From positions 18,120 through 82,119 of the forward strand of contig CAKSQS010000005.1 of NCBI GenBank assembly GCA_934486705.1: a stretch of DNA of 64,000 nt, given 5' to 3'. This DNA is from an uncultured Eubacteriales bacterium (lineage in GTDB: Bacteria; Bacillota; Clostridia; Oscillospirales; Acutalibacteraceae). The notes under the pieces were generated by a model. It worked only from the letters and a program-made list of their open reading frames with translations, was not told the origin of the DNA and made no database searches. Positions 40,852-62,201 of this stretch are shown here, in pieces; position 1 is the first letter of the stretch; every line of letters begins with the position of its first letter. A program made the position numbers and the translations under genes.

Positions 40852-40859
40852 TAAGACAA

Positions 40860-41768: not shown

Positions 41769-41982
41769 AAACTCATGATTTATTTTTTGAAAAACAGGTT
41801 TCGATTTATATACAACATAATGCCTATCGTGTTATAATTATAATCGGTGATGGGGTTGTGCTGATATGCTGTTTTTAAGAATCCCAGTTAAAAAGTGATG
41901 AATTTTAACAGGTATTTGTCGATTTGAGAATAAGAGTACTATTTATTATTTTGCAACATAATGGCATTAGTAAAAATAAAAA

Positions 41983-44145: not shown

Positions 44146-44178
44146 ATAATAAAACTTAAGTGTAGAGGAAGAGAAAAA

Positions 44179-44826
44179 ATGTATCCAATAAATAATATTC
44201 AGGGAATATATAAACAGGAAAGCGAATTAGAAGGTAATCATGTAATAATTTTACTTCTTGTAAAGCCATCTGATACAGGTGCAGATGATTATATAAAAAA
44301 GTTCAATTATTTACACTATCGTTCTAAACGGTACTGCTCGATATATTTGCTTGGATACTCACAGGATTTTCAAGGAAAATACATAGATGCCATTTCTGTA
44401 CAAGGTATAGACCATCAAAAATGGCAATATAGCGATCAATGTTTTTCTGACGCATGCGATGAATTACAAAACCGCTTGTCAAACTGGCACTATTCCGGTG
44501 AGCCAGAAATGATTATTTTGCAGAATAGTTCGAATTCGGATTCAAAGAAATGTTTGAATTTTACAAATTATAATTACATAGATATCAACTATGGTATTGA
44601 AAAACAATACATCGATAGCTTCCCGCGCTTTATGGAAAGACTAATTCAGTCTTGTAAAAATGAAGTCACAGCGGTTGAAGCAATTACTTCAGCCAATAGA
44701 AAGCGCATAAGTCCAAGAAAAGTTATGGAATATGCGATAGAAGAATGCCCTCGCTTACCGCGCCCTGTCAGAAGTATTCTTAAAGACAAATTGTTTTATA
44801 AATCATGTAAAAACAAAGTGGCATAA
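44179..44826 (+). CDS. hypothetical protein, partner of the 720-aa cargo protein
   Basis: 215-aa ORF 33 nt downstream with RBS GAGGAAGAG and the same AT-rich composition. No motif recognised. Confidence 0.65.
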   Translation: MYPINNIQGIYKQESELEGNHVIILLLVKPSDTGADDYIKKFNYLHYRSKRYCSIYLLGYSQDFQGKYIDAISVQGIDHQKWQYSDQCFSDACDELQNRLSNWHYSGEPEMIILQNSSNSDSKKCLNFTNYNYIDINYGIEKQYIDSFPRFMERLIQSCKNEVTAVEAITSANRKRISPRKVMEYAIEECPRLPRPVRSILKDKLFYKSCKNKVA

Positions 44827-45206
44827 TTTGACTTATAATTTGCAATCAAGCAGTAATGCTTGAAATAAAAACTAAGGAGGAACCTTTATGAAAGTGTTAT
44901 CATTAGTAATCTTGGTGACTCTCTTGGTGTTGTAGTGTGCGAAAGCCATTACAAAAATCAAGGGAGTCCCGACCCCTGGTTGGGTAGAGATATTGATAAG
45001 CATCCTCGCCGTAGTAAAATATGGCTTGAAGTTGCTGTCCTTGACTCTCTCTCAATTTTAAGGGTAGGTCTGAACGGCCTAGGGGCACTGCTTTTCAGCG
45101 GTGTCCTAAATTAATGCATTATGAATCTAATATAGCGATGTGGCAAAAAATAATTTTGCCAAGAGCACAAGCGGTAGGGTAGCATTTGCAATTAAATAAA
45201 CTATTT

Positions 45207-45250
45207 AAAAAGCGAGAATTTACTAAAAGTTGTAGATTCTCGCTTTTTAT
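45207..45250. terminator. bidirectional rho-independent terminator after the cargo
   Basis: AAAAGCGAGAAT pairs with ATTCTCGCTTTT (45207-45219 with 45236-45248), A-run before and T-run after. Confidence 0.7.
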
Positions 45251-45455
45251 TACTGATTCAATAAATATTGCTGCATAGGCTCTTTTTTCGTTTTTAAGAT
45301 AAACCTTACTTCACCATTTACTACACCATTTTGGTGTGGACTTGCATAGAGAAATATAAAGATGTATTAAAGTGATTTTTTTAAAACCCGCGGTACTATC
45401 GGGTTTTATGAGATTTTAAGGAGTTATAGGGACATATGAAACGCGGTTCGGCAAT
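45243..45455. mobile_element. relic of a related element end (degenerate att-flank plus integrase 3' end fragment)
   Basis: 45310-45333 (TCACCATTTACTACACCATTTTGG) matches the integrase stop region at 36060-36084. CGTTTTTA and CTTTTTATTACTGATTC resemble the attL-proximal flank. Confidence 0.4.
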
Positions 45456-45498
45456 TACCATTCCTAATTTCATTTATTCCCATATCTCCTTATTTTAT
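45456..45498. repeat. attR core (43-bp direct repeat)
   Basis: Identical to 35988-36030. Confidence 0.9.
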
Positions 45499-45680
45499 AA
45501 GTATTTGATTATTGTAATATATACAGCTTTTCTGAAAATACGAAAAGAGCTGATACGACTTTTATATTATAGCGCATCAGCTCTTCTTTTTCAATATAAA
45601 TAAGTTTAATTTGTTTTTGCGGCGGGGAATAAATAAAAAAACGGGCGAATGCGGAACGGGTTCTGATTTTTTGAGGTATT
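45499..45680. mobile_element. relic of a second related element (int-xis intergenic homolog, integrase deleted)
   Basis: 45541-45610 (CGAAAAGAGCTGATACGACTTTTATATTATAGCGCATCAGCTCTTCTTTTTCAATATAAA) aligns with 37283-37345 between int and xis. Confidence 0.4.
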
Positions 45681-45681
45681 T

Positions 45682-45882
45682 TTAATAAGTATTTTGCTTA
45701 TCTTCAGTTTCAAGTTTTTGAAGGGTTTTCTTTTTAGCCTTTTCTAACAAATTATAGGGGATATTAGGAATTATACATTCAGAGCACTTTCCAAACTCAT
45801 CAACTGAAATCGTATCAAGTGTACATTTTCTGCTTTTTTGGTATATACAGTATTCATTTTCACATATCATTCTAATTACCAT
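45682..45882 (-). CDS. small Cys-rich protein, unknown function
   Basis: 66 aa. CENEYCIYQKSRKC...GKCSECI gives two Cys pairs, followed by a Lys-rich tail. Confidence 0.45.
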   Translation of the reverse strand: MVIRMICENEYCIYQKSRKCTLDTISVDEFGKCSECIIPNIPYNLLEKAKKKTLQKLETEDKQNTY

Positions 45883-45975
45883 AATTTATTATACAGTATC
45901 ATTATTAAAAATGCAACCAAAAAAGGTTATATAAATATAACCGAAAATAAGCATAATATTATTGAGGGTGATATT

Positions 45976-46158
45976 ATGTTTAAGGTGGATAATGAACTGA
46001 AAAGTGCAAATATTCCGCGTACGGTGCGGTTTACCGAGCCGCTTTTTGAAAAGCTTAATAAAACGGCGGCGGAAAACGGCATTTCATTCAATTTGTTGGT
46101 TTTGCAGTGCTGTAAATATGCGCTTGACGATATGCGGGAAAATGATACGCAAAAATAA
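45976..46158 (+). CDS. ribbon-helix-helix (CopG/Arc-like) small DNA-binding protein
   Basis: 60 aa. IPRTVRFTEPLFEKLNKTAAENGISFNLLVLQCCKYAL shows a beta-strand/helix/helix pattern. The ATG at 45976 is preceded by GAGGGTG; the track ORF begins at 45838. Confidence 0.5.
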   Translation: MFKVDNELKSANIPRTVRFTEPLFEKLNKTAAENGISFNLLVLQCCKYALDDMRENDTQK

Positions 46159-46172
46159 TTTTTGATATAAAC

Positions 46173-46208
46173 AAAAGCCGAATGACGGACATATCGCACT
46201 CGGCTTTT
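46173..46208. terminator. bidirectional terminator (end of the minus-strand RiPP block and of the RHH gene)
   Basis: AAAAGCCGA (46173-46181) pairs with TCGGCTTTT (46200-46208). Confidence 0.65.
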
Positions 46209-46230: not shown

Positions 46231-47637
46231 TTAAAGGGCAATATCCTCGGCGGGGGTGGTGTTTATAAAATCGGGCAGAGTGTTTTTAACGCGCTCATAA
46301 TACCCCTGCTCCCAAAAAAGACATTTTGCGGGGTCAATGCCCAATTTATTGTTTGTAAGCGCCAAAGCGATAGCGCGGCAGCCGCCGAGACAGTGCTCAA
46401 AGTATTTGCATTTCCCGCATTTATCGTTCTTTTCGCGGAGCGTGCCGACCGTCAGGCAGACTTCATCTAAATATTTGCCGCCGCAGAGCAGCTCGCGCAG
46501 CGGCTCTTTTTTTAGATTGCCCGGAATATCGTTATGCTGCTCATAATAGCCCGATTGCTGGTGGCAGGGGAAAACGTTTCCGTTTGCCGCTACGGCTATC
46601 ATTCCGCGGTTTCCGCGGCACACGGGCAGGCTGTCGCGGTATTCGCCGCTGCATGCGCCCACCGCCGCAAGGGAGTAATGCCGTGTTACGGGGTACAGCG
46701 TGCCGAACTGCCACACGGTAAGTACCATTTTGTGTTTTCCCGCGGCATAAGCTTTCCAAAGCTTTAAGGCTTCTTCGTAATATTCATTAAGCGATAATGC
46801 GGCGTTGCCCGCGTTCTGCACCCAGCGCGGCGCCTCTGTTGTGCGTATTATGCGCATTTCGGAAACACCCATACTGTCAAGTAACTCGGCGGTTTTAAGC
46901 ATTGTGTCAAGGTTTTTTCGGTTCACGTTCGTTTGCACCTTAACGGGAAAACCGTTTTCTATGCAAAGCTTTATTGCATTAAGCGCGTTTTCCTCAGCGC
47001 CTTCGCGGTTGCGCATCCAGTCGTGAAAGCCCAGCCCGTCAAAGGAAATTTTCATAAGCGGAACGCAGCCGATTTTTTTAAGCCTTTCAAGAGCGGCGGC
47101 GGTTATGTAATAGCCGTTTGTGTTAATTTCCTCAACAAACATATTACGTTTATAAATCCCCTCAATAATATCAAAGAAATTTTTGTGCAGCATAGGCTCG
47201 CCGCCGGTTATTGTAAAGGCGTTTATTCCGCAGTCATACGCCTCGTCAAGCAGCTTTTCCGCCTCTTCTGCCGTCCACTCGCTTTGCAGCGGCGCATTAT
47301 CCGCCGCGTTAAAGCAGTGAAGACAGTTGTAATTGCACTTGCCGGTTATCATCCAGTTCATAGCGGGAAAATAGCGGTTATCGCAAAGCCGCGGTCTGCT
47401 CCACGGTTCTGTCTCCTCGCCATCTTCCGCTATGCGTATAAAGCCGTTTGCAAGAAATTTTTCGGCAAGCGGGCTGTCCGCAGCGCTCGGTAATTCTGTT
47501 TTTCCGTCGCAAGCGGATAAAAAGTCAAATTCTTCGCCCTTAAGCCCGCACGCGTTGCGCTCGCCCTTTATGTAATAGGCAAAGGGTACAAGCCGCCATG
47601 AGCGCAGGGCAATATTCGGATTTAATACATAATGCAT
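46231..47637 (-). CDS. radical SAM/SPASM-domain peptide maturase
   Basis: CX3CX2C motif GKCNYNCLHCF, GGEPML, and C-terminal auxiliary-cluster Cys (CSGEY...CRGN...FPCH...CGKCKYFEHCLGGCRA). Confidence 0.9.
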   Translation of the reverse strand: MHYVLNPNIALRSWRLVPFAYYIKGERNACGLKGEEFDFLSACDGKTELPSAADSPLAEKFLANGFIRIAEDGEETEPWSRPRLCDNRYFPAMNWMITGKCNYNCLHCFNAADNAPLQSEWTAEEAEKLLDEAYDCGINAFTITGGEPMLHKNFFDIIEGIYKRNMFVEEINTNGYYITAAALERLKKIGCVPLMKISFDGLGFHDWMRNREGAEENALNAIKLCIENGFPVKVQTNVNRKNLDTMLKTAELLDSMGVSEMRIIRTTEAPRWVQNAGNAALSLNEYYEEALKLWKAYAAGKHKMVLTVWQFGTLYPVTRHYSLAAVGACSGEYRDSLPVCRGNRGMIAVAANGNVFPCHQQSGYYEQHNDIPGNLKKEPLRELLCGGKYLDEVCLTVGTLREKNDKCGKCKYFEHCLGGCRAIALALTNNKLGIDPAKCLFWEQGYYERVKNTLPDFINTTPAEDIAL

Positions 47638-47651
47638 AGCTGTAACCTTAC

Positions 47652-47675
47652 AGGCCGCCGAAAAAACGGCAGCCT
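47652..47675 (-). promoter_or_regulatory. stem-loop between the last precursor gene and the maturase gene
   Basis: The minus strand reads AGGCUGCCG-UUUUUU-CGGCGGCCU, 9 bp with one U-G that pairs only on the minus strand. No U-tract follows. Confidence 0.5.
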
Positions 47676-47705
47676 GCTTTCCTTTATGAGTATTGGGCGA
47701 TAGGC

Positions 47706-48086
47706 TTACTTTTTACTGTTTTCATAGTTCTCACAGTACATTATTGCACCTACCGATTTAGAATAATAGCAGCTCGGGCAATAGGAGTTGCGCAGGCAGG
47801 TTTCGTCCCTGTTGCCGTTTTTATGGTCGCGCCCGCACTGAGTACATTCAAATTTATCGCAGGAGTGGCGCGAGGTAACTATAAGCTTGCCCTCTATATT
47901 GTAGCATCCGCCGCCCGATACGTTATCAAGCTCTTCATCGGAAAGCTCGCCCGCCTTCGGGTGCAAAAGCTCAAAATATGCCTTTGCGCCGTCGAGTGTC
48001 ATTTCTTCGCCGTTTTCTTTTGCAAGACACAGCAATTCTTCAGGAGTTTTTGCAGCTTTCGCTTTTGAAATAAGTTCACTGTTCAT
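47706..48086 (-). CDS. Nif11-type leader / Cys-rich core precursor peptide 1 (most divergent core)
   Basis: The leader MNSELISKAKAAKTPEELLCLAKENGEEM...ELSDEELDNVSGGG is followed by a core with 8 Cys. Confidence 0.85.
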   Translation of the reverse strand: MNSELISKAKAAKTPEELLCLAKENGEEMTLDGAKAYFELLHPKAGELSDEELDNVSGGGCYNIEGKLIVTSRHSCDKFECTQCGRDHKNGNRDETCLRNSYCPSCYYSKSVGAIMYCENYENSKK

Positions 48087-48088
48087 TT

Positions 48089-48502
48089 TTATAATTTCCT
48101 CCCGTATTCGGTATTGGGGTTATTGCAAAGCCACAGGCCTCTTTCATACGAGCAATACTTGCAGTATTCGCACCAGGTTACATTTCCGCAATTTCTGCAT
48201 ACCCGGCGGTACGGGAAAACCGAGGTTTCAACCGTATCCTTTGCGCAGCCGTTTTTGCACTGCCAATCCCAGCAGCGGAATCGCGTGGTAACAACAAGTC
48301 TGCCGCTGTTGTAGCAGTTGCCGCCCGATACATTGTCAAGCTCTTCGTCTGCAATTTCGCCCGTCTTCGGGTGCAAAAGCTCAAAATATGCCTTTGCGCT
48401 CTCTTCGGTCATTTCTTCGCCGTTAGTCTTTGCCATTTCAAGTAATTCTTCGGGGGTTTCAGCCGTTTTCGCCTTGGCAATCAGTTCTTTGTTTATTTCC
48501 AT
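48089..48502 (-). CDS. Nif11-type leader / Cys-rich core precursor peptide 2
   Basis: The leader ends DEELDNVSGG. The core has 10 Cys and ends CEYCKYCSYERGLWLCNNP. Confidence 0.85.
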   Translation of the reverse strand: MEINKELIAKAKTAETPEELLEMAKTNGEEMTEESAKAYFELLHPKTGEIADEELDNVSGGNCYNSGRLVVTTRFRCWDWQCKNGCAKDTVETSVFPYRRVCRNCGNVTWCEYCKYCSYERGLWLCNNPNTEYGRKL

Positions 48503-48521
48503 TTTAATGCACTCCGTTCGT

Positions 48522-48917
48522 CTAATTTTTTCGGTGATTGCTTTTGTTGCAAAGCCACAATCCTTTTTCGTATGTGCAGTATTTGCAGTTGTTACATACT
48601 GTCAAGCGGCCGCATTTGCATATCCCGACACTGACTGCATTTTTATTGATTTGAGTGCCGCATTTTTTACACTCAAAACCCGTACAGCCGTGACCGACGG
48701 TCACAATTTCTCTGCCGTCATCTGCATGACATCCGCCGCCCGAAACGTTTTCAAGCTCTTCATCGGCAATTTTGCCGGTCTTCGGGTGCAAAAGTTCAAA
48801 ATATGCTTTTGCGCTCTCCTCGGTCATTTCCTCGCCGTTTTCCTTTGCAAGACATAGCAGCTCTTCGGGGGTTTTTGCTTTCTTTGCTTTTGATATAAGC
48901 TCTTTGTTCATTTCCAT
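48522..48917 (-). CDS. Nif11-type leader / Cys-rich core precursor peptide 3
   Basis: MEMNKELISKAKKAKTPEELL...ENVSGGG, then core CHADDGREIVTV...CNNCKYCTYEKGLWLCN. Start set at the ATG at 48917, preceded by AAGGGTGA; the ORF extends to 48926. Confidence 0.85.
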   Translation of the reverse strand: MEMNKELISKAKKAKTPEELLCLAKENGEEMTEESAKAYFELLHPKTGKIADEELENVSGGGCHADDGREIVTVGHGCTGFECKKCGTQINKNAVSVGICKCGRLTVCNNCKYCTYEKGLWLCNKSNHRKN

Positions 48918-48935
48918 AATTATCACCCTTTTATA

Positions 48936-49328
48936 TTATTTTTTCATTCTGGCGGGGTTGTTGCAGAGCCACAGACCCTTTTCATATGTGCAGTAGTGGC
49001 AGGTGTTGCAAAACGCGCCGATTCCGCATGTATTGCAGTATACCATCGCACCGTATATATCGCATTGCGAGCCATCGGTTTTGCAGCGCCATTCGTCGCA
49101 GTAATTCATTACGGAAACAACAAGTCTGTCGCCCTTGTAACATCCGCCGCCCGCTACATTGTCAAGCTCTTCGTCTGCAATTTCGCCCGTCTTCGGGTGT
49201 AAAAGCTCAAAATATGCCTTTGCGCTCTCCTCGGTTATTTCTTCGCCGTTTTCTTTTGCAAGACATAGCAGTTCTTCGGGAGTTTTTGCCTGTTTCGCCT
49301 TTGCTATAAGTTCGTTATTCAGTTGCAT
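48936..49328 (-). CDS. Nif11-type leader / Cys-rich core precursor peptide 4
   Basis: The true start is MQLNNELIAKAK at 49328. The track ORF (to 49502) runs in-frame into the 3' end of the next gene. The core is CYKGDRLVVS...CNTCHYCTYEKGLWLCNNP. Confidence 0.85.
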   Translation of the reverse strand: MQLNNELIAKAKQAKTPEELLCLAKENGEEITEESAKAYFELLHPKTGEIADEELDNVAGGGCYKGDRLVVSVMNYCDEWRCKTDGSQCDIYGAMVYCNTCGIGAFCNTCHYCTYEKGLWLCNNPARMKK

Positions 49329-49347
49329 ATCAATGCGCTCCGTTCGT

Positions 49348-49743
49348 CTAATTTTTTCGGTGATTTTCTTTGTTGCAAAGCCACAGTCCTTTTTCGTATG
49401 TGCAGTATTTGCAGTTATTACATACTGCCATGCAGCCGCATTTGCATAACACAATACCGACCGAATTGATAATATTTTTGCAGCCGCATTTTTTACACTC
49501 AAAACCCGTACAACCGTGACCGACGGTCACAATTTCTCTGCCGTCGTCTGTATGACATCCGCCGCCCGATACATTGTTAAGCTCGTCATCGGTAATTTTG
49601 CCTGTTTTCGGGTGTAATAGCTCAAAATAAGCCTTTGCGCTCTCCTCGGTCATTTCTTCGCCGTTTTCCTTTGCAAGACATAGCAGCTCTTCGGGAGTTT
49701 TTGCAAGCTTAGCCTTTTCAAGTATTTCATTTGTGTTTTTCAT
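49348..49743 (-). CDS. Nif11-type leader / Cys-rich core precursor peptide 5
   Basis: The leader ends DDELNNVSGGG. The core has 12 Cys: CHTDDGREIVTV...CNNCKYCTYEKGLWLCN. Confidence 0.85.
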   Translation of the reverse strand: MKNTNEILEKAKLAKTPEELLCLAKENGEEMTEESAKAYFELLHPKTGKITDDELNNVSGGGCHTDDGREIVTVGHGCTGFECKKCGCKNIINSVGIVLCKCGCMAVCNNCKYCTYEKGLWLCNKENHRKN

Positions 49744-49754
49744 AATTTAACTCC

Positions 49755-50138
49755 TTAACGCCCAAAATTGCAAAGCCACAGACCTTTTTCATAAGAGCAA
49801 TGCTGACAGTTTGTGCAGTTGGCTAATCTGCCGCACTCCTTGCAGCAAGCACTTTTTACGGCGTTTACTATGCACTTACCGCCGCATTTACTGCAGGCAT
49901 AATTATTGCATATGCAAAATACCGAAACGATTTTTCTTCCGTCGTTTTTGTTGCACCCGCCCGCTACATTGTCAAGCTCATCATCGGCAATCTCGCCTGT
50001 TTTCGGGTGTAAAAGCTCAAAATATGCCTTTGCACTGTCAAGGGTAATTTCCTCATCGTTTTCCTTGGCAAGACATAGCAGTTCCTCGGGGGTTTTTGCA
50101 TTTTTTGCTTTCGCAAGCAGTTCTTTGTTTATTTCCAT
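49755..50138 (-). CDS. Nif11-type leader / Cys-rich core precursor peptide 6
   Basis: MEINKELLAKAK...DDELDNVAGG. The core has 13 Cys and ends CTNCQHCSYEKGLWLCNFGR. The ORF extends to 50147. Confidence 0.85.
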   Translation of the reverse strand: MEINKELLAKAKNAKTPEELLCLAKENDEEITLDSAKAYFELLHPKTGEIADDELDNVAGGCNKNDGRKIVSVFCICNNYACSKCGGKCIVNAVKSACCKECGRLANCTNCQHCSYEKGLWLCNFGR

Positions 50139-50156
50139 AATTATCACCCTATTATA

Positions 50157-50534
50157 TTATTTTTTCATATTAGCGGGATTGCTGCAAAGCCACAGACCCT
50201 TTTCATATGTGCAGTAACGGCAGGAGTGGCAAAATGCAGCAACTCCGCATTTACGGCAGTATAAAAAATCATTTCCTTTTGAACCGTCATTTTTGCAGCA
50301 CCATTCATCGCAGAAATGCATTGCGGAAACAACAAGCTTGTCGCCCTTGTAGCAGCCGCCGCCCGATACATTATCAAGCTCTTCGTCGGCAATCTCGCCT
50401 GTCTGCGGGTGCAAGAGCTCAAAATATGCCTTTGCGCTCTCCTCGGTTATTTCCTCGCCGTTTTCCTTTGCTAAACATAGCAGCTCTTCGGGGGTTTTTG
50501 CTTTCTTTGCTTTTACAAGAAGTTCTTTGTTCAT
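50157..50534 (-). CDS. Nif11-type leader / Cys-rich core precursor peptide 7
   Basis: Start MNKELLVKAK at 50534, preceded by GGAGAG; the ORF extends to 50555. The core is CYKGDKLVVS...CHSCRYCTYEKGLWLCSNP. Confidence 0.85.
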   Translation of the reverse strand: MNKELLVKAKKAKTPEELLCLAKENGEEITEESAKAYFELLHPQTGEIADEELDNVSGGGCYKGDKLVVSAMHFCDEWCCKNDGSKGNDFLYCRKCGVAAFCHSCRYCTYEKGLWLCSNPANMKK

Positions 50535-50561
50535 TTTAAAACTCTCCGTTCGCATTATTTT

Positions 50562-50939
50562 TTATTTGTTGCAAAGCCACAGTCCTTTTTCATAGGTGCA
50601 ATATTTGCAATGGTTGCAAATCGCTGTTTTACCACATTCTTTACATACCGGAAACGTAGATGTATCTAAATAACGGCCGCCGCACTTTTTGCATACAAAA
50701 CCTCCGCAGGTGTGACATACCGTTACAATTTCTCTGCCGTCATTTGCGTGGCAGCCGCCGCCCGATACATTGTCAAGCTCGTTATCGGCAATTTCGCCCG
50801 TCTGCGGGTGCAAAAACTCAAAATATGCCTTTGCGCTCTCCTCGGTCATTTCCTCGCCGTTTTCCTTTGCAAGACATAGCAGCTCCTCAGGTGTCTTTGT
50901 GTTCTTTGCTTTTGCAAGCAGCTCCTTGTTCATTTCCAT
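50562..50939 (-). CDS. Nif11-type leader / Cys-rich core precursor peptide 8
   Basis: MEMNKELLAKAKNTKTPEELL...NELDNVSGGG. The core is CHANDGREIVTV...CNHCKYCTYEKGLWLCNK. Confidence 0.85.
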   Translation of the reverse strand: MEMNKELLAKAKNTKTPEELLCLAKENGEEMTEESAKAYFEFLHPQTGEIADNELDNVSGGGCHANDGREIVTVCHTCGGFVCKKCGGRYLDTSTFPVCKECGKTAICNHCKYCTYEKGLWLCNK

Positions 50940-50952
50940 TTTAAAAATCCTC

Positions 50953-51429
50953 CTAAAAATATTTTTTAAGCTCTGTAAGAGCTTTATTATGTAACAGCTT
51001 TGTGTGGGAATAGGAAATTCCTATAGCCTCCGCTATGCTTTTAAGGGGTAAGCCGTTATAATAATGTAAAATTACGATATTTCGCGAGCGCTCGTCTATG
51101 CTTTCGAGCGCGGCGGCTAAAGCTTCAAGCGTTTCGTTTTTAAAAATTGAGGTGTCCGCGTTTTCCGCCGTCAGGTTTTCGTTAAGCTCGGCGGTATTCT
51201 TTCTTGTTCGGTAGTAGTCAATTACCGTGTTCCGCGCCACTGTGTATATCCAAGTGGAAATTGACGCTTTGGTTTCGTCAAAGCTTTCTATACTTTTAAA
51301 AACTTTTAGAAAAACCTCGCCTGTAAGGTCTTCGGCATCGTGCGGGTTTTGCACCTTTTTCAGCATATACCGCATTACTTTTTCCTTATACTCGGTATAA
51401 ACCTTATCCCTTAATAGAAATACGTTCAT
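50953..51429 (-). CDS. ECF-type sigma-70 family RNA polymerase sigma factor
   Basis: 158 aa. Region 2 (DAEDLTGEVFLKVF...STWIYTVARNTVIDYYR) and region 4 HTH (LPLKSIAEAIGISYSHTKLLHNKAL). Confidence 0.85.
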   Translation of the reverse strand: MNVFLLRDKVYTEYKEKVMRYMLKKVQNPHDAEDLTGEVFLKVFKSIESFDETKASISTWIYTVARNTVIDYYRTRKNTAELNENLTAENADTSIFKNETLEALAAALESIDERSRNIVILHYYNGLPLKSIAEAIGISYSHTKLLHNKALTELKKYF

Positions 51430-51629
51430 AACGGCTTTTCCTCGCTGTTCGGCTTTTTACCGTTATCTATTTCGCCCGCCGCGTTTACAAAATCAAGCTC
51501 ATCGTCCGATAACTCTCTGCTGTAAATCTGCGATTTATCAATAAGCTTTTTAAGCCGCGGGTTTTCCTCAATTTCCTGATAATCGAAAAGGGCGGTCAGT
51601 AATTGCTGAAAATTATTGCTTTTCTCCAC
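51426..51629 (-). CDS. small acidic protein with a leader-peptide-like C-terminal motif (possible anti-sigma/regulatory peptide)
   Basis: 67 aa. Its stop overlaps the sigma factor start (ATGA). RELSDDELDFVNAAGE resembles the precursor leader end EIADEELDNVSGGG, but no Cys-rich core follows. Confidence 0.5.
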   Translation of the reverse strand: MEKSNNFQQLLTALFDYQEIEENPRLKKLIDKSQIYSRELSDDELDFVNAAGEIDNGKKPNSEEKPL

Positions 51630-51717
51630 GGTTACCCTCTCTTTCCGTTTTGTTTTTCCCTTTCACTTATTTATACGAACGAATTTGCAAAAGGGCTTAT
51701 TTTTTTAAAAATATTTT

Positions 51718-53901
51718 TTATGTATCGAGCCGCTGCCGTGCCACAAGCTCTGCAAATACGCCGTTTTTGGCTATCAGCTCGTCGTATGTTCCGTCCTCTG
51801 TAATTTTTCCGCCGTCCAGCACCAAAATGCGGTCGCACTGCTTTATGGTGGAAAGCCTGTGGGCTATTACTATTCTTGTGCATTTAAGGGAATCAAGTGA
51901 TTCCGAAACCTTTTTCTGCGTAAGGTTATCAAGCGCGCTTGTAGCTTCGTCAAGCATTAAAATTTTAGGCTTGGGCGCTATTGCGCGGGCTATCATAAGC
52001 CGCTGCCGCTGCCCGCCCGAAATGCCGCCAGAGCCCTCGGAAATTATCGTGTTCATTCCCATTGGCATACGGCGTATATCCTCGGCTATTCCCGCTTTCT
52101 CGGCGGCGTCCCACGCGTCGCTTTGCGTAAGCCACGGGGCGGATATTACTATATTGGAATAAATATCCCCCGAGAAAAGCTTGCCGTTTTGCATTACTAC
52201 GCCTATTCTGTGCCTGAGGGATTTAAGGTCTATTCGCTCAATATCCCTGCCGTCATAGTAAACGGCGCCCTTTTGCGGCTTTTCAAAGCCTAAAAGAAGG
52301 CGCATAAGCGTTGATTTTCCGCAGCCTGTTTTGCCCACTATGGCAACATACTGTCCGGGGCGAATTTTAAGGGACATATTATCAAGTATAAGCGGCATAT
52401 TTTCATTGTACCTGAAAGAAACGTTGGTAAGCTCTATTCCGCCCGAAAGCCTTGTTATAACCTCTTTGCCCTCGGAAATCTCGGGCACGGTGTTAAAAAA
52501 CGGCTGCACCGTTTCCAAAATCGGCTTTATCTGCGCTACGGTAAGCGCCATTCCCGCAAGGGACATAAAAGCGCCCGAAACCATACCGTAGGCTGTGCCG
52601 AACGCATAATAATCTGCCACCGAAACGCCCGATTTTACCGCCGCCGCATACATAACTATATTACCTATAAGCGAAATGGCAAGGCTTATAACCGAATTAA
52701 GCTTAATAAATGCGGGCGGGTTGTATGTAAGCTTTGCGTTTTGCGCATAAAGGTTGCCCCAGCGGGCAAAGGCTCTTTTTTCTGCGCCCGCAAGCTTTAT
52801 TTTCTGTATGCCGCTTATAAGCGCATAGCTCATTCCGCTTTCCTTTGCCGAAAGCTCCATTTGCTTTTTTGAAATACGCATTTGCGCAAACGAGGAAATA
52901 AGCGAGAAAGCGACCGTTACCAAAATGACAGCTATTGCAGGCACTACAAGCAGGGGAGCATATATAAATATCTGCGAAATGTAGATAAGCGAAAAAACCG
53001 AGGTAAGCCCCGTTGTAAGCACGGCGGAAACCAGCATATTGCAAAGCGATGATATATGCGCCGCGCGGCTTGACAAATCGCCCGAGCCATACCCCTTAAA
53101 AAAGTCCGCCGGCAGGCTCATTATTCGCATCATTGCCGCCGCCTGCACCGAAACGCTCATTTTGGTATTTATTCTTGCGGTTATCATTTCCTTGGTGGCG
53201 GAAATAAGTAAAGAGCTTACAGATACCGAAACCGTGAACACCGCAATTGATAAAAGCAGCCTTACACTGCCCGACGGCAAAACCGCCGCAAACAAAATAT
53301 TGTTAAGCTTAGGCGAGAGCATACCTATTAAAGAGAGCGCTAAAGTTGCAAGGGCAATAAGCGCAAAATCGGCGGGGGAGAGCGTTTCCGCAATATATTT
53401 TGCAACCGAGCCGAGCCCAATTTTTTTAAGCGGAAAGGGCTTGTAAAAGGCTATAGCCTCGCTATCGAAAAGGCGCTGATTTTTGCGGTTTATTTTAATT
53501 TTTTTGCCGCTGTCCGGGTCAATATAGCAGTAGCCCGAAAACCCCGCGGGAATAAGTGCGACCACCCTGCCGCTTTCCTTCATAACGCCGAGCATTGCGC
53601 CCACCGCGTCGCGATACCAGCCCTTTTCAAGCCTTACCGTGCGGCGCATTATGCCGTAGGGGCGCATTAAATATTCAAGCTGCTCGTTTGTGTCCTTTAT
53701 ATTGTCGGGCACTTCGCGGCTTTTTACGTGGTAATATTTTAAAATTTCGTCAATCGCGCTTTTCGCCGCCGCGCTGCCGTCTGAAAGGCTGCCTGTTACC
53801 TTTGAGCCTAAAACGGCAGCCGCCATATTTACAAATGAATCGGCAAAAACATCGTCGTCGTTTTGCTTTCGCTGCCTTATCTGTTCGTCAAACCAACCCA
53901 T
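51718..53901 (-). CDS. bacteriocin-type ABC exporter, ATP-binding/permease, N-terminal domain without peptidase Cys (NHLM-system-like)
   Basis: 727 aa. Walker A GKTGCGKST, signature ISGGQRQR, Walker B ILMLDEATS. The ~150-aa N-terminal domain lacks a C39 catalytic Cys motif. Confidence 0.85.
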   Translation of the reverse strand: MGWFDEQIRQRKQNDDDVFADSFVNMAAAVLGSKVTGSLSDGSAAAKSAIDEILKYYHVKSREVPDNIKDTNEQLEYLMRPYGIMRRTVRLEKGWYRDAVGAMLGVMKESGRVVALIPAGFSGYCYIDPDSGKKIKINRKNQRLFDSEAIAFYKPFPLKKIGLGSVAKYIAETLSPADFALIALATLALSLIGMLSPKLNNILFAAVLPSGSVRLLLSIAVFTVSVSVSSLLISATKEMITARINTKMSVSVQAAAMMRIMSLPADFFKGYGSGDLSSRAAHISSLCNMLVSAVLTTGLTSVFSLIYISQIFIYAPLLVVPAIAVILVTVAFSLISSFAQMRISKKQMELSAKESGMSYALISGIQKIKLAGAEKRAFARWGNLYAQNAKLTYNPPAFIKLNSVISLAISLIGNIVMYAAAVKSGVSVADYYAFGTAYGMVSGAFMSLAGMALTVAQIKPILETVQPFFNTVPEISEGKEVITRLSGGIELTNVSFRYNENMPLILDNMSLKIRPGQYVAIVGKTGCGKSTLMRLLLGFEKPQKGAVYYDGRDIERIDLKSLRHRIGVVMQNGKLFSGDIYSNIVISAPWLTQSDAWDAAEKAGIAEDIRRMPMGMNTIISEGSGGISGGQRQRLMIARAIAPKPKILMLDEATSALDNLTQKKVSESLDSLKCTRIVIAHRLSTIKQCDRILVLDGGKITEDGTYDELIAKNGVFAELVARQRLDT

Positions 53902-53916
53902 TAAGTCTTTCCCCCT

Positions 53917-56106
53917 TTACTCGTTAGTTACAAGCTCGGCATACATTCCGCCCTTTTTCATAAGCTCGTCGTGCGTGCCGCGTTCGGCAACCCTGCCGTT
54001 ATCCATTACTATTATTTCGTCGCAATCCCGTATAGTCGAGAGCCTGTGCGCCACAACTATGCAGGTTATGCCGCGATCCTTAATGGAGTTTACAACGTTG
54101 TACTCGGTTTTAGCGTCAAGCGCGCTTGTGGCTTCGTCCAAAATTATAATCGTGGGGTCTTGCGCCAACACGCGCGCTATTTCCATTCGCTGCCGCTGCC
54201 CGCCCGAAAAGTCCTTGCCGCCCTCGGTCATTTTGTACTGATAACCGCCCTCGCGCTGCATAATATCCTCGTGCAGCTGTGCGTCGCGCGCCGCCATTAT
54301 CATTTCAAAATCCTCTATCGAGTTATCCCACATTTTAATGTTGTTGGCTATTGTATCTTCAAACAAAATTATATCCTGGTCCACTACCGCCAGCGAGCCT
54401 GTAAAAACGCTGCGGTCAATTTCGGATATTTTTTTGCCGTCGAAAAGTATTTCGCCGCTCCAAGGTTTATAAAGCCCCGAAATCAGCTTTGAAAGGGTGG
54501 ATTTTCCGCAGCCCGATGGCCCTACAAATGCCACGCGGCTGCCGGTTTTAAGCGACAAATTAAAGTTTTCTATAAGCGGCTCTGCAAGGCGGGAATAGCC
54601 GAACGTGACGTTTTTCATTTCAATATTGCCCGAAAGCTTATCGTACTCGCAGTTATCGCTTACGGGAGCATCCTCGGGAACGTCGGTGGGGTAGCGCATT
54701 ACGTCCTCTATGCGCTCCATTTCGGTGCGCATTTCCTGCAAGCTTTGCCCTGCCGAAATCAGCGACGTTGCGGGGGAAACAAACGAGCCTAAAAAGCCCT
54801 GAAACGCCATTATCATACCAACGGTAAACCTGCCCTGCATTGCAAGGTACACGCCCACCATTAAAACCGCCGTATTGCAAACCGAGCTTACAAGCGCAGG
54901 CAGCTGACCGAGCAGCTGATTAAGCTTTTGAAATTTTACCTGCTGCGTATTGGCACTTGCCTGATAGCCCGCCCATTTTTCAAAAAATCCGTTTTCTGCG
55001 CCGCTTGCCTTAATTGTTTCAATCATTTCTATTCCGGCAACGGTAGCGCCCGCAAGCTTACCTGAGTCGCGCATTTGCACGCGGGTAATATTTATCCGCT
55101 TTTTTGAAATAATGTTTGAGAAAATAAGGTTTATAAGCACCGATAAAATGCCTATAACGGTTAAAAGCAGGCTGTACCTTATCATTACAACAAGGTAAAA
55201 CACCATCATTACCGCGTTTAGTGCGAGCGGCGCAAAGGTATTTACAAGGCTGCCCGCTATGCTCGCGTTTGCTGACTGCCGCCCCTGAATATCACCCGCC
55301 ATACGCTGCGAGAAGAATTCCATAGGCATACGCAGCACTTTCCACATAAAGGTTGTGCTGCCCACCATGGCAAGCTTTCCGTTAATTTTAAGGGAATAAA
55401 CGGCGTTTATCCACCCCACAACAAGCTGCAAAACGCTAAGGAGCGATAAGCCTATAATAAACGGTATAAACCACTCGGGGTTTTTGCCCGTCAGCAATCT
55501 GTCAACAAAAACGCGCGAAAATGCGGGGCTTATAACCCCCGTTATGGCAGATATAAGCGCGGTAATTGCCGCAAAGGCAACCGCACTGCCCGCACCCTTA
55601 AGCCGCTTTTTGGCATATGCCAAAACAGATGGCGGCTTGCCGCCGGGGGTAAAGATTTCGGTCGGCTCAAACAAAAGGCAAATGCCTGTAAACGAATCGT
55701 CAAAGGTTTTCAGAGATACGGCGTATTTTCCCTTTGCGGGGTCGTTTAAAATCGCCTTGTTGCCGCGAAAGCCGTCCAACACCACAAAATGGTTGAAATT
55801 CCAGTGAATAATGCAGGGAAATTTTCCGTCGCGTCTTAAGTCGTTCGGCTCATACCTGTAACCCTTGGCGGCAAGCCCGTAGCTGCGGGCGGCTTTTAAA
55901 ATATTGCGCGCGTTAGAGCCGTCACGCGATACGCCGCAGTCAAAGCGCACCTGTTCAAGCGGCAACCATTTGCCGTAGTAGGCAAGCACCATTGCAAGGC
56001 TTGCCGCGCCGCATTCAAGCGCCTCCATCTGCATTATTACGGGCACGTCGGCAGCACCGTGCATTACGGGCTTTTTAAGTTTTTTAGTCTCTTTTATCTT
56101 TTCCAT
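53917..56106 (-). CDS. bacteriocin-type ABC exporter with an N-terminal C39 peptidase domain
   Basis: C39 motifs QMEALECGAASLAMVLAYYG (Cys) and NHFVVLDG (His). Walker A GPSGCGKST, signature FSGGQRQR, Walker B IIILDEATS. Confidence 0.9.
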   Translation of the reverse strand: MEKIKETKKLKKPVMHGAADVPVIMQMEALECGAASLAMVLAYYGKWLPLEQVRFDCGVSRDGSNARNILKAARSYGLAAKGYRYEPNDLRRDGKFPCIIHWNFNHFVVLDGFRGNKAILNDPAKGKYAVSLKTFDDSFTGICLLFEPTEIFTPGGKPPSVLAYAKKRLKGAGSAVAFAAITALISAITGVISPAFSRVFVDRLLTGKNPEWFIPFIIGLSLLSVLQLVVGWINAVYSLKINGKLAMVGSTTFMWKVLRMPMEFFSQRMAGDIQGRQSANASIAGSLVNTFAPLALNAVMMVFYLVVMIRYSLLLTVIGILSVLINLIFSNIISKKRINITRVQMRDSGKLAGATVAGIEMIETIKASGAENGFFEKWAGYQASANTQQVKFQKLNQLLGQLPALVSSVCNTAVLMVGVYLAMQGRFTVGMIMAFQGFLGSFVSPATSLISAGQSLQEMRTEMERIEDVMRYPTDVPEDAPVSDNCEYDKLSGNIEMKNVTFGYSRLAEPLIENFNLSLKTGSRVAFVGPSGCGKSTLSKLISGLYKPWSGEILFDGKKISEIDRSVFTGSLAVVDQDIILFEDTIANNIKMWDNSIEDFEMIMAARDAQLHEDIMQREGGYQYKMTEGGKDFSGGQRQRMEIARVLAQDPTIIILDEATSALDAKTEYNVVNSIKDRGITCIVVAHRLSTIRDCDEIIVMDNGRVAERGTHDELMKKGGMYAELVTNE

Positions 56107-56116
56107 ATAAGCTTCC

Positions 56117-56590
56117 TCAGTTAAGAATAAAGGAGATAGGGGAGACGCGCTCCTTAATTACCGTCGCCTTATATGTGCCGTCGGGCAATCCCGCCGCGCT
56201 TGCGCGAACCTCATACACCGCGTCGGTCGCGTCTATTCCCGCAAGGCTTAAAATACTGCCGTCCTTTTCCTTATCGAGCCGTATGGGAGCGGCCGCAATA
56301 TCGGTTACGGGGTATTCCTGCTCATTTACCGAGATAAACGCATTATCGGTAAAGCCCGATATATCCGATTCTTTTACATAACATACAATTTCGCCGTTTT
56401 CGGCTGCGCCTGCGGTTTGAACCGATGAATCAAGCTGCCCGAACACGCCCCAAACGCACGCGCCCGCAAGCAGAATTACAACCGCCGCCAGCACCGTCCA
56501 TACGCCGGGGTTTGATACCCTTATGTAATCGTTAAGCTGCTCGGGCGAGGTGACCCTTTCCATACTTTTCTTTCTGAACAAATCGCTCAT
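56117..56590 (-). CDS. short HlyD-family-like membrane protein (N-terminal anchor module only)
   Basis: LFRKKSMERVTSPEQLNDYIRVSNPGVWTVLAAVVILLAG is the typical HlyD/bacteriocin secretion adaptor N-terminus. The ORF is only 157 aa. Confidence 0.55.
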   Translation of the reverse strand: MSDLFRKKSMERVTSPEQLNDYIRVSNPGVWTVLAAVVILLAGACVWGVFGQLDSSVQTAGAAENGEIVCYVKESDISGFTDNAFISVNEQEYPVTDIAAAPIRLDKEKDGSILSLAGIDATDAVYEVRASAAGLPDGTYKATVIKERVSPISFILN

Positions 56591-56606: not shown

Positions 56607-58646
56607 TTACAGGTATTTTATTACGGACAGTATGTTTTTTCCGTCTTTACGCTCGTATTTTACTTCGTCCATTGTCTTTTTAACAATGTAAATTCCAAGC
56701 CCGCCTATTTCGCGCTCGTCAGCCGAAAGAGTTACGTCGGGGTCGGGCTTTTCAAGCGGGTTGTAGGGCGCTCCGCTATCGGTAAAGGTGAGTGTGACAG
56801 CCTTCGGGCTATCGCTCTTTTCGAGTCTTATTTCTGCGTTGCCCTCTCCGTTTTCATAGGCGTAGTGCGCTATGTTTGAAAAAATTTCATCCGCCGCTAT
56901 ATCTATTTGCTTTTGAGCTTTCATATCGCAGCCGAGACTTTCAAGCTCCGCATTTATAAACTCGGTAATTTTATCAATGCTTTCTGCTGCGGCAGATACG
57001 GTTATAACGCAACCGTTCCCCATTTTTGCCTTGTATTCAAGGCAGAGCATTGTTATATCGTCAAACTGCGGCGCGCCAGATACAAATTTGTCAATATCGG
57101 TCTTAACTGCGCCCAGTATCTCGGCGGGAGCGGTATTTTTAACGCTGTTAAGCGCGGTTTTAAGTCTATCCATACCGTAAAGCTCGTTTTCGGAGTTTGT
57201 AGCTTCGGTAACGCCGTCGGTGTACTGAAAAATTTTATCGCCCGCACTGAGCGTAATGCTGCCCGCGCGGTATTTCATATTTTCCATACCCGCAAGCACA
57301 AAGCCCGGGCGTATTTTGTAAGGCTCAAATTCGCTGCCCGCCCTTAAAATAAACGGCATTTCGTGCCCTGCGTTTACAAAATTAAATTCACCTGTGGCAA
57401 GGTCGAGCACGCCCTCAAACGCGGTTATGAAAAGTCCCTCGCTGTTTGATTCGCAAAGCATATTGTTTACTTCGGTGAAAACCTCGCCCAAGTCTTTCCC
57501 GGGAACGGTGTGGTCGTTAATAAGGGTTTTGCCTATAACCATAAACAGCGCAGCGGGAACGCCCTTGCCCGAAACATCCGCCATTACAATTGCCAAATGG
57601 CGTTCGTCCACCATAAAGAAATCGTAAAAATCGCCGCCGACCTCCTTTGCGGGGTCCATTGTGGCGTAAATATCAAATTCGCGCCTTTCGGGGAACGCGG
57701 GGAAAATGCAGGGCAGCATTGAGGCCTGAATATTCTTTGCAATATCAAGCTCCGCGCCTATTCTTTCCTTTTCGGCGGTGACTTTTGAAAGGTTGGCAAT
57801 GTAGCCTTCAAGCTTTTCAAGCATATAGTTAAAGGAGTTGCCCAATTGCTCTATTTCGTCGCCTGTTTTAAGTGAGATACGCTGATTTTCAAATACACCC
57901 GTTTCGGTAATATTCTTTGTAAATGCGGCAAGCTTGCCTATAGGCTTTGTAACCACCCTGCCCACAAAGAATATATAGGCTAAAATGGTAAGACCTATAA
58001 CCGCAAAGGCTATTAAAAGCATATTTATAAGGAAAGAGTTAAGGTGCGCCCGCACCTCGCTCATATCCAGTATATACTGTATTTCGGCAATCGCTTTGCC
58101 GTTTTCATCGGTTATAACCGATATTCCCGTGTAGTTATAGCCGTAGCTGTTATCGGTTACAATCGGCTTTTCAAGCCCCTTGTTTTGCGAGTACATTTTC
58201 CATATTGTTATGTATTTTTCCATATCCCGCGGGTCGTCGGGGTTAGCCGCCTCGGCATACGGCACGACGCTGCCGTATGCCAACCGGTTTTCGGGGCTGT
58301 CGCCCATTTCCTCAACCATTGCGTCAATGTAAAAATGAACGCTGTCTTCATCCGGCACAACAAGCGAAAGAAATGTAACGTTTCCGTCCTTTTTAAGCTT
58401 GTTGAAGAGCGCGGCTGTTTTTTTGTAGGTATCGGTTTTATCGCCGCCGCTTGCTATAATTGTTTTAACGTCCTCGGCGGGCAGCATTGCGGCAATGGCG
58501 TTGCTGTTGGTCATAACCCGCTCGGCATACATATTTTCAAGGTATGATTTTGAGGTGGCGTAGCTGAAAAGCGATACCGCAACCGTCATAACAAGACCTA
58601 TTACGCCGAGCGAAATAATAAATTTAGGTAAAAGCCTTATTTTCAT
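56607..58646 (-). CDS. membrane sensor: extracytoplasmic domain-HAMP-PP2C(SpoIIE) phosphatase fused to an RsbW/SpoIIAB-like HATPase domain
   Basis: Two TM helices flank a ~170-aa outer domain, followed by a HAMP-like linker. PP2C motif VMADVSGKGVPAALFM. C-terminal N-box ADEIFSNIAHYA, G1 FTDSGAPYNP, G2 IGGLGIYIVKK. Confidence 0.8.
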   Translation of the reverse strand: MKIRLLPKFIISLGVIGLVMTVAVSLFSYATSKSYLENMYAERVMTNSNAIAAMLPAEDVKTIIASGGDKTDTYKKTAALFNKLKKDGNVTFLSLVVPDEDSVHFYIDAMVEEMGDSPENRLAYGSVVPYAEAANPDDPRDMEKYITIWKMYSQNKGLEKPIVTDNSYGYNYTGISVITDENGKAIAEIQYILDMSEVRAHLNSFLINMLLIAFAVIGLTILAYIFFVGRVVTKPIGKLAAFTKNITETGVFENQRISLKTGDEIEQLGNSFNYMLEKLEGYIANLSKVTAEKERIGAELDIAKNIQASMLPCIFPAFPERREFDIYATMDPAKEVGGDFYDFFMVDERHLAIVMADVSGKGVPAALFMVIGKTLINDHTVPGKDLGEVFTEVNNMLCESNSEGLFITAFEGVLDLATGEFNFVNAGHEMPFILRAGSEFEPYKIRPGFVLAGMENMKYRAGSITLSAGDKIFQYTDGVTEATNSENELYGMDRLKTALNSVKNTAPAEILGAVKTDIDKFVSGAPQFDDITMLCLEYKAKMGNGCVITVSAAAESIDKITEFINAELESLGCDMKAQKQIDIAADEIFSNIAHYAYENGEGNAEIRLEKSDSPKAVTLTFTDSGAPYNPLEKPDPDVTLSADEREIGGLGIYIVKKTMDEVKYERKDGKNILSVIKYL

Positions 58647-59248
58647 ACCCTTAGTTCCTTTCCTGTTTTTTTAAAGTATATTTCCGCCCCGCAGCGGCAG
58701 CGCCCGCCGCATATGGGGCAAATAAGCTGCTTTTCATCGTACCATACATTTTCGGCGGACGATAAAAAGCTAAAGCCACAGCTTTTAAGCGCGGGGGCTA
58801 AAAACGCGCCGCCCTCCGCTTTCCAACAGACCGTAAACACCGCGCCCGCTCCCGCTTTTTGCAGGCGGTCTGCGGCAAATTTTATAAGCCGCGCCGCAAT
58901 GCCGAGCCCACGAAAATCCTCTCTTATTCCTACCGATTGTATCTGCCCGATACAGTCGCCGCTGTCGCTCGCTTCGAGCAGAATTTTTTCATCAAGCTTT
59001 GCATATTTTACAAGGCTTTTAGTATCGGTCAATTTATAATAAATATATCCTGCCGTTTCTCCGTTTTCGGTTTTTAAAAGCCAAAAAAACTGCTTTTTAT
59101 TTTCTACAGTGATACCGAGGTCTTTTTCGGAATACAGATTTTTACCCACGCATATATCGCAAAGCGCCTTTGCCGTGCTTATTTCGTTGAGCCGCAGTGG
59201 GCTTAAATAAAATACCGCTCCGTTTTCCGCAGCTATTCTGTTTTCCAT
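58643..59248 (-). CDS. GNAT-family N-acetyltransferase with a C-terminal Cys cluster
   Basis: Motif A QIQSVGIREDFRGLGIAARLIKFA. C-terminal CPICGGRCRCG. 4-nt overlap with the downstream phosphatase gene. Confidence 0.75.
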   Translation of the reverse strand: MENRIAAENGAVFYLSPLRLNEISTAKALCDICVGKNLYSEKDLGITVENKKQFFWLLKTENGETAGYIYYKLTDTKSLVKYAKLDEKILLEASDSGDCIGQIQSVGIREDFRGLGIAARLIKFAADRLQKAGAGAVFTVCWKAEGGAFLAPALKSCGFSFLSSAENVWYDEKQLICPICGGRCRCGAEIYFKKTGKELRV

Positions 59249-59254
59249 TTATAA

Positions 59255-60091: not shown

Positions 60092-60102
60092 TGCCTTACT
60101 CC

Positions 60103-62138: not shown

Positions 62139-62201
62139 TCTCCGTTTGCAAAGAAATTTTCATATGCTGCGCGGTAAAGTTGGCACGCATATTATATTAT
62201 C

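Follow-up and report, generated by a model that had tools for sequence, protein, structure and literature searches.

How a single modifying enzyme might serve a whole array of dissimilar substrate proteins is the question raised by a 64,000-nucleotide stretch of DNA from an uncultured Eubacteriales bacterium of the Acutalibacteraceae (contig CAKSQS010000005.1, positions 18,120 to 82,119 of the forward strand), referred to here in its entirety as the window. Eight tandem genes for cysteine-rich precursors lie there beside the gene of one radical S-adenosylmethionine (rSAM) maturase with a SPASM region, together with genes for two ATP-binding cassette (ABC) exporters and a sigma factor. The overall architecture is very probably that of a cassette for peptides that are made on the ribosome and modified after translation (RiPPs). 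In related loci the same leader precedes cores of several kinds, and a Cys just beyond the double-glycine end of the leader, here called the junction Cys, appears on sequence comparison to be the only feature common to core types across loci. The prospect that this residue is the target of the maturase is judged to be about evenly balanced. The favoured reading taken in full, namely that gut Clostridia use a sigma-controlled cassette of RiPP type to secrete modified mini-proteins, has perhaps equal chances of being right or wrong.

All genes and motifs of the cassette lie on the minus strand. The precursors, with gaps of 2-27 nt between their genes, are precursor 1 (47706-48086; 126 amino acids (aa), 8 core Cys), precursor 2 (48089-48502; 137 aa, 10 Cys), precursor 3 (48522-48917; 131 aa, 10 Cys), precursor 4 (48936-49328; 130 aa, 10 Cys), precursor 5 (49348-49743; 131 aa, 12 Cys), precursor 6 (49755-50138; 127 aa, 13 Cys), precursor 7 (50157-50534; 125 aa, 10 Cys) and precursor 8 (50562-50939; 125 aa, 11 Cys). 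These coordinates are those of the likely true starts, four over-extended open reading frame (ORF) starts having been shortened; for precursor 4 a listed 188-aa ORF with a TTG start overlaps gene 5, and the gene caller and the alignment favour the MQLNNE start. The same eight products are obtained with an independent gene caller on identical human-gut metagenome contigs, and a leader profile built from the eight finds exactly eight matches in the 64-kb window. The eight tandem paralogs reported in a preliminary description of the locus are therefore recovered by ORFs, gene caller and profile alike.

The leaders of all eight precursors comprise 59-61 aa and end in NV[SA]GG. With a mean pairwise identity of 81% (range 73-90%) they are strongly shared, although the earlier wording, almost invariant, is an overstatement. 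The motif ELxDxELDNV[SA]GG marks the point at which identity falls, from 81% in the leaders to 44% (range 22-79%) in the cores, which are 64-76 aa long and carry 8-13 Cys each, as had been claimed for all eight. At every leader end the double-glycine pattern is present, with E-L at positions -8/-7, V at -4 and G-G at -2/-1. Either L or I stands at -12, and S at -11 is confined to precursor 1, the rest having A or T there. The consensus for such sites reads L-12, S-11, E-8, L-7, V/I-4, G-2, G-1 (logo described in PMC2887384). The curated model for Nif11-like leaders, TIGR03798, matches the eight precursors with 18.6-28.4 bits (E 1.4e-6 to 1.7e-3), and 86 of 88 family members match it at E <= 0.01, the lowest E being 1.4e-9. 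On these scores the window precursors are relatives of the Nif11 family and may be called Nif11-like, although by the curated rule they are not members; of the Nif11-type leader first proposed, the family relationship and the GG end stand, and formal membership does not, all eight leaders scoring below the cut-off. The leader is helical in the AlphaFold2 (AF2) model of precursor 3. In seven of the eight window leaders a Cys occurs at about residue 22 (ELLCLAKENG), within the second helix; this Cys is not conserved family-wide.

For comparison, 80 loci anchored on the enzyme were retrieved from a collection with one genome per species, some 340 further candidate stretches lying outside this set. 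They carry enzyme orthologs 56-73% identical to that of the window and derive mostly from metagenome-assembled genomes of Oscillospiraceae, Lachnospiraceae and other gut Clostridia; Sporofaciens musculi is among the few cultured isolates. A small number of bins are labelled with other taxa, perhaps through mis-binning. The enzyme has 1-11 precursors with this leader as its neighbours in 69 of the 80 loci; in most of the remaining 11 the upstream side is covered by little sequence or none. The proposal that one enzyme serves many cores thus holds, with up to 11 precursors in a locus. The genes that recur across the set are only those for the rSAM enzyme, the precursors, the two ABC proteins, a short HlyD-like protein, the sigma factor, a 67-aa protein and partner-switching proteins; no immunity gene or second tailoring enzyme recurs among the 80 loci.

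From these loci 207 distinct cores were compared. The same leader fronts the Cys-rich type of the window, other Cys-rich types with CPxC...CxxC pairs, Cys-poor cores some 70 aa long that hold one to three Cys (a sub-threshold Tudor match, E 0.006, occurs in one of them) and peptides of only 15-20 aa. Despite this diversity, a Cys stands no more than four residues past GG in 198 of the 207 cores (at position 2 in 149), compared with 74.9 +/- 6.6 in shuffled sequences. This junction Cys is kept in 19 of 19 cores with three Cys or fewer, including nine single-Cys cores, and its distance to GG is steadier than its distance to a downstream DG turn. Asp follows within seven residues in 129 of the 198 cores, most commonly at offset +4 (64.4 +/- 6.1 expected from shuffling; the relatedness of the sequences inflates both enrichments), and D or E occupies Cys+4 in seven of the eight window cores. 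A fixed distance from leader to Cys would explain how one enzyme tolerates unrelated cores. Single arrays (L007, L008, L010, L013, L005 and L015) mix very different cores behind one leader, among them Cys-poor ~70-aa cores starting with CGGG, single-Cys peptides of 15-20 aa (GCHSDNGYLNTHQIF) and several other Cys-rich types.

Since only the junction Cys is common to all cores, it can be argued that the many other Cys are structural and not all donors of rSAM-dependent crosslinks. The opposite view is that the maturase installs numerous thioethers, of the kind found in sacti- and ranthipeptides, over most of the 8-13 Cys, giving stapled products of 60-75 aa comparable to Clo7bot or SCIFF peptides. 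The abundance of Cys in the cores is in keeping with this, as is the closest sequence and fold match of the enzyme, the sactisynthase SkfB; moreover, PapB and the ruminococcin C maturases make several thioethers processively (PMC9413430, PMC8188230). Against it, orthologs as close as those described here stand beside cores with one to three Cys, of which the junction Cys is always one. In the window the Cys mostly form CxxC or CxxCG pairs spread over the whole of a core whose fold is confidently predicted, and no Clo7bot, SCIFF or other rSAM-target peptide model matches the eight window precursors or the 88 family members (E <= 0.01). Crosslinking on this scale is regarded as doubtful.

The cores of the window are also less variable than their initial description as hypervariable implied. 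Family-wide, seven Cys never vary and another two show conservation of at least 90%; the YEKGLWLCN motif at the C-terminus hardly changes, and variation is mostly confined to one loop between a CKKCG and a CxxCG element. Nine conserved Cys form the shared scaffold of the window cores, with a single loop that varies. Precursor 1 deviates, in that it keeps the N-terminal module GCYxxEGKLIVT and the first Cys pairs and has a divergent C-terminus without the YEKGLWLCN end; a core similar to it stands alone beside the enzyme in locus L002. For the cores the ratio of nonsynonymous to synonymous substitution rates (dN/dS) is 0.41, against 0.15 for the leaders, and with dS saturated the value of 0.41 gives no support for positive selection on the cores.

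In the AF2 model of precursor 3 the core is beta-rich, with a predicted local distance difference test (pLDDT) score of 81-93. This confident fold, together with the nine-Cys scaffold and its CxxCG pairs, suggests that the other Cys are structural. Each precursor has a Nif11-like leader, about 60 aa long and helical in the model, then a double-glycine site and a Cys-rich core predicted to fold alone, in which the remaining conserved Cys, including the CxxCG pairs, would build the fold through zinc or disulfides. Foldseek searches of the Protein Data Bank (PDB) with the precursor model gave nothing under E = 0.4, the core profile found only insignificant zinc-finger matches among PDB sequences (E >= 0.14), and Pfam offered zinc-ribbon and Tudor hints on the cores, all sub-threshold. 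Among 1.84 billion representative sequences the core type of the window was found in 84 clusters, nearly all of them with the core starting at about residue 60-67; this domain occurs almost only behind such a leader. The sole long protein picked up with the core profile (P0282, 1093 aa) matches the C-terminal half (CxxCxxC...C) partially, five times over, and may be an unrelated Cys-repeat protein.

The maturase (46231-47637; 468 aa) contains an N-terminal domain similar to a RiPP recognition element (RRE), followed by radical SAM and SPASM domains (Pfam Radical_SAM, 78.1 bits; SPASM, 25.7 bits against a cut-off of 21.5). The CX3CX2C motif CNYNCLHC (C101, C105 and C108) is invariant, as are eight Cys of the SPASM region in 14 of 14 orthologs (C340, C358, C394, C407, C410, C416, C420 and C439), in agreement with the enzyme class and the SPASM-like clusters originally assigned. 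In the AF2 model (pLDDT 81.8) a domain with the order beta-beta-beta-alpha-beta-alpha-beta precedes the barrel; residues 1-90 have pLDDT values of about 80-96 and form a candidate RRE on fold comparison. The top Foldseek matches are SkfB (1.2e-16) and SuiB (6.4e-15), followed by PqqE, TigE and anSME; the alignments to SkfB and SuiB are near full-length, and both are RRE-bearing RiPP maturases that bind leaders. By analogy, the shared leader would dock on the N-terminal domain and so place the junction Cys in the active site. SkfB is the best match by sequence and fold, but a distant one (52.8-56.6 bits; 18% identity in the Foldseek alignment), and no NCBIfam equivalog cut-off is reached, the best model being AhbD (123 bits against 500), with peptide maturases at 65-95 bits. 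Between the last precursor and the maturase gene lies an 11-bp GC-rich hairpin without a T-tract (47650-47677; -23.7 kcal/mol, z = -2.2 on folding). It is absent from that position in related loci, where the gap is in many cases no more than 20-30 nt, and was rejected as a conserved attenuator; for this reason it carries little weight.

The tandem Cys-rich peptide genes of Clostridia described as Clo7bot by Haft and Basu in 2011, which reportedly lie beside the rSAM/SPASM enzyme CcpM, had been suggested as relatives of the cassette. This affiliation is not supported: the Clo7bot peptide model is unmatched in all 8 + 88 sequences, and the enzyme falls under all NCBIfam cut-offs, with CcpM outside its 25 best matches, none of which reaches its cut-off.

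What the maturase does to its substrate can be considered from PapB, which joins Cys with Asp or Glu where these form CX3D/E motifs and also accepts spacings of 0-6 residues (PMC9413430). In the cassette the Cys 1-4 residues after GG would be modified, the likeliest product being a PapB-like C-X3-D thioether. Such a bond from the junction Cys to a nearby Asp or Glu is possible, by analogy, and is put forward tentatively. The enzyme might instead act at the leader-core junction through another chemistry, for example by turning Cys into formylglycine in the manner of anSME, by epimerisation, or by joining neighbouring residues through a C-C or C-O bond. anSME, PqqE and SuiB rank near SkfB in fold and profile searches; anSME possesses two fully ligated auxiliary clusters, an arrangement that the eight invariant SPASM-region Cys would also allow here, and the cores starting with CGGG offer no acidic acceptor nearby. 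The roughly two-fold enrichment of Asp just after Cys is harder to accommodate in these terms, and the cut-offs of the families concerned are not approached; an outcome of this sort is considered unlikely.

A further possibility is that, once the leader is cut off, the junction Cys serves as a handle for attachment to lipid, cell wall or another molecule, or as a dimerisation site, so displaying or anchoring diverse small domains. Many cores do consist of a Cys, a Gly/Ser-rich linker and a folded domain, resembling mature lipoproteins, and the Cys is fixed relative to the cleavage site, not the fold. No transferase recurs in the cassette across the related loci, however, we know of no SPASM enzyme that carries out such an attachment, and in the window cores a conserved structured segment directly follows the Cys. 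This role is very unlikely.

Several points weigh against modification of a junction Cys and against the favoured reading more generally. The maturase is about equally far, in sequence and fold, from SPASM enzymes that form thioethers, C-C bonds, Lys-Trp bonds and formylglycine. Its eight invariant SPASM-region Cys could ligate both auxiliary clusters fully, unlike the open site of CteB. Neither D, E nor N is found near the junction Cys in 19 of the 198 cores, and the CGGG-starting cores have just a flexible linker after it. The enrichment statistics are inflated by relatedness, as noted; the pattern nonetheless spans unrelated core types. All eight leaders score under the curated TIGR03798 cut-off of 32.3 bits. 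Roles in zinc or disulfide binding are suggested only by the CxxCG spacing and by sub-threshold zinc-ribbon hints, and an anti-sigma role for the 67-aa protein (below) is speculative. What is directly observed comprises the anatomy of the cassette, the linkage of its genes, the family membership of the exporters, and the motifs and fold class of the enzyme.

Export of the products is predicted from the family membership of the ABC pair. ABC1 (53917-56106; 729 aa) is an NHLM-type exporter (TIGR03796, 952.9 bits against a cut-off of 853.3) with an N-terminal C39 peptidase that is intact (Peptidase_C39 at residues 21-150, E = 4.9e-34; ECGAAS at 31 and NHFVVL at 105). ABC2 (51718-53901; 727 aa) is likewise of NHLM type (TIGR03797, 738.5 bits against 709.4), and Peptidase_C39 was not detected in it with Pfam. 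The pairing of one peptidase-bearing and one peptidase-free exporter given in the preliminary description is thereby confirmed. A short HlyD-like membrane protein with one predicted transmembrane helix (56117-56590; 157 aa) matches only positions 1-51 of the 421 of TIGR03794, with 34.4 bits against a cut-off of 156.2. Its gene is kept at about the same length in 34-35 loci, and it is therefore not a pseudogene fragment; the stub once proposed is a conserved short protein and not a remnant. The NHLM export triad and the Nif11-derived leader were defined by Haft, Basu and Mitchell in 2010 (PMC2887384). Of the NHLM assignment, the two ABC proteins stand above their equivalog cut-offs and the HlyD partner below its own, and the RiPP-type architecture as a whole (Nif11-like leader, double-glycine site, rSAM/SPASM maturase and NHLM-type export) holds. 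The C39 domain of ABC1 would cut after GG, and ABC1, ABC2 and the short HlyD-like protein together would export the product.

It could be objected that the precursors are intracellular metal-binding proteins, neither cleaved nor exported, with an exporter that is merely a neighbour. Their Cys spacing is zinc-finger-like, and zinc-finger proteins alone figure among the insignificant PDB matches. Yet the double-glycine pattern ends all eight leaders, the core domain is found almost only behind the leader, and about 40 loci, with several arrangements of the genes, show linkage of the exporter. Such an explanation is hardly credible.

Upstream of the precursors, as had been stated, lies the gene of an extracytoplasmic function (ECF)-type sigma-70 factor (50953-51429; 158 aa), identified by TIGR02937 (110.7 bits against a cut-off of 42.9) and by both Sigma70_r2 and Sigma70_r4. 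It is located within the cassette in 28 of the 80 loci. Two further elements were overlooked in the preliminary description. One is the gene of a 67-aa protein (51426-51629), the stop of which overlaps the start of the sigma factor gene by 4 nt and which is present in 26 loci, always alongside the sigma factor. A motif of double-glycine type, LSDDELDFVNAAG, is present in the protein, the family of which shares LFDYQ.F...RL..LI...LSDDEL..V[NS]AAGE ahead of a variable hydrophilic tail without Cys; no Pfam or NCBIfam family matches it. When the family was compared with the leaders by hhalign, only the 16-aa segment LSDDEL..V.AAG aligned, at the double-glycine end (probability 63%, E 6.8e-5). Speculatively, the 67-aa protein is an anti-sigma factor, or a decoy substrate with the same cleavage motif, that is removed by the exporter, which would couple expression to export.

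The other is a promoter-like motif, TAAGCC-N16-CGTATAA (51671-51699), 41 nt upstream of the 67-aa gene. The general form T[TA]AGC[CT]-N13-19-CGTATAA has a single match in the window and 22 sites in 1.0 Mb of related loci, where 4.2 +/- 2.0 are expected. Most of these sites stand shortly before the 67-aa gene or the first precursor, the latter where the sigma factor lies downstream of the enzyme. The CGTA element resembles the '-10 CGT' of ECF promoters, and a promoter of CGTA type may drive one transcript spanning the 67-aa gene, the sigma factor, the eight precursors and the rSAM gene. A general scan for sigma-70 promoters and terminators was uninformative because its counts were near those of shuffled sequence. 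At the other end of the cassette, a HAMP-SpoIIE phosphatase fused to an RsbW-like kinase domain (56607-58646; Pfam SpoIIE, HATPase_c_2 and HAMP) adjoins the cassette in 13-14 loci and is possibly a partner-switching regulator of it, its membership being uncertain.

The kind of system is already known, one in which a SPASM maturase and NHLM export accompany RiPP precursors that bear a Nif11-like leader. N11P/NHLM systems, including the prochlorosins, share with the cassette a long structured leader ending in Gly-Gly and extensive families of paralogous precursors whose variable cores are handled by a single enzyme (PMC2887384), as well as the TIGR03796 and TIGR03797 exporter pair. They differ in using LanM or a cyclodehydratase in place of an rSAM/SPASM enzyme, and radical SAM partners are unmentioned in the 2010 account (PMC2887384). 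In comparison with them the leader of the cassette is shorter (~60 aa) and below the curated cut-off, the HlyD partner has only 157 aa, and the cores are foldable domains of 64-76 aa, in contrast to the short low-complexity peptides of N11P. PapB/freyrasin and the ranthipeptides (SCIFF/CteB) resemble the cassette in their rSAM-SPASM maturase, to the RRE of which the N-terminal domain of the cassette enzyme may correspond, and in a Cys donor with a nearby acidic residue (C-X3-D/E); in SCIFF precursors a Cys directly follows GG. Freyrasin, however, has six sites per precursor as against probably one conserved site here, cassette cores are three to four times longer than those of the PapB/freyrasin type, and export by an NHLM ABC pair is unlike that of PapB/freyrasin and other ranthipeptides. 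Nor was a tie to ranthipeptides found at the level of models (TIGR04103, 76.6 against 725; no SCIFF match). SkfB forms just one thioether, from a Cys close to the beginning of the core, but SkfA is a 26-aa cyclic peptide from a single gene with different export and processing. The SPASM enzyme QhpD forms Cys-to-Asp/Glu thioethers in QhpC, a small Cys-containing protein of about 80 aa with a leader and a dedicated ABC exporter, which is the gamma subunit of quinohemoprotein amine dehydrogenase, a periplasmic enzyme of Proteobacteria. In contrast to the cassette, QhpC is the product of a lone substrate gene, lacks a leader of double-glycine or Nif11 type and belongs to another gene neighbourhood.

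So far as searchable literature and curated libraries show, this variant is uncharacterised, and no description of the family was found in searchable full-text literature. Source annotations are generic, the few names found being 'radical SAM protein' and 'hypothetical protein'; of the curated models, that of the leader alone touches the precursors, with scores under its cut-off. Its distinctive points are the foldable mini-protein cores, the universal junction Cys, the reduced HlyD partner and the sigma factor with its leader mimic. The family is large, with at least 346 cluster-level relatives of the precursor and more than 1,500 of the enzyme at E <= 1e-20, and one product of the window cluster is present on 269 contigs. 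In its most far-reaching form, the cassette would be a general pathway for tagging a junction cysteine and secreting the product, rather than a classical peptide-antibiotic cluster: guided by the leader, the enzyme would place one modification on a Cys at a fixed distance from the cleavage site, regardless of the sequence behind it, a changing repertoire of unrelated small domains would be matured and exported, and a leader-mimicking anti-sigma factor, removed by the exporter, would gate expression. This extended version is doubtful. Were the junction-Cys model true, it would account for as many as 11 unrelated cores sharing one enzyme, would provide a portable tag, consisting of the leader plus GC, for stapling or functionalising arbitrary mini-proteins, and would raise the question of what abundant secreted Cys-rich proteins do in the gut. 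The pairing of leader mimic and sigma factor, if true, would be a new way of coupling transcription to export.

Directly downstream of the rSAM gene, an integrative mobilizable element occupies 36060-46200. It encodes an integrase (36060-37304), a Tn916-type Xis, an FtsK/SpoIIIE protein (37597-38913), a rolling-circle Rep (38910-39851) and a helix-turn-helix protein (40471-40851), together with low-GC cargo (28-33% GC) that consists of two proteins, of 720 aa (41983-44145) and 215 aa (44179-44826), for which no family match was obtained. The spacer between rSAM gene and mobile element holds a 66-aa Cys-rich ORF (45682-45882, minus strand) with a sub-threshold DUF1540 match (E 0.003) and no counterpart in related loci. 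On the other side, a block with a MATE transporter, a SAM-dependent methyltransferase, a GNAT protein and SpoIIE/RsbW-like genes adjoins the cassette in the window (58643-62159) and in the distant loci L028 (4823-9661) and L052 (9379-13218), in three different arrangements. The window block also includes a STAS gene (61839-62159), and that of L028 sits between the rSAM and ABC genes. The methyltransferase and the GNAT protein of this block could be lineage-specific tailoring enzymes.

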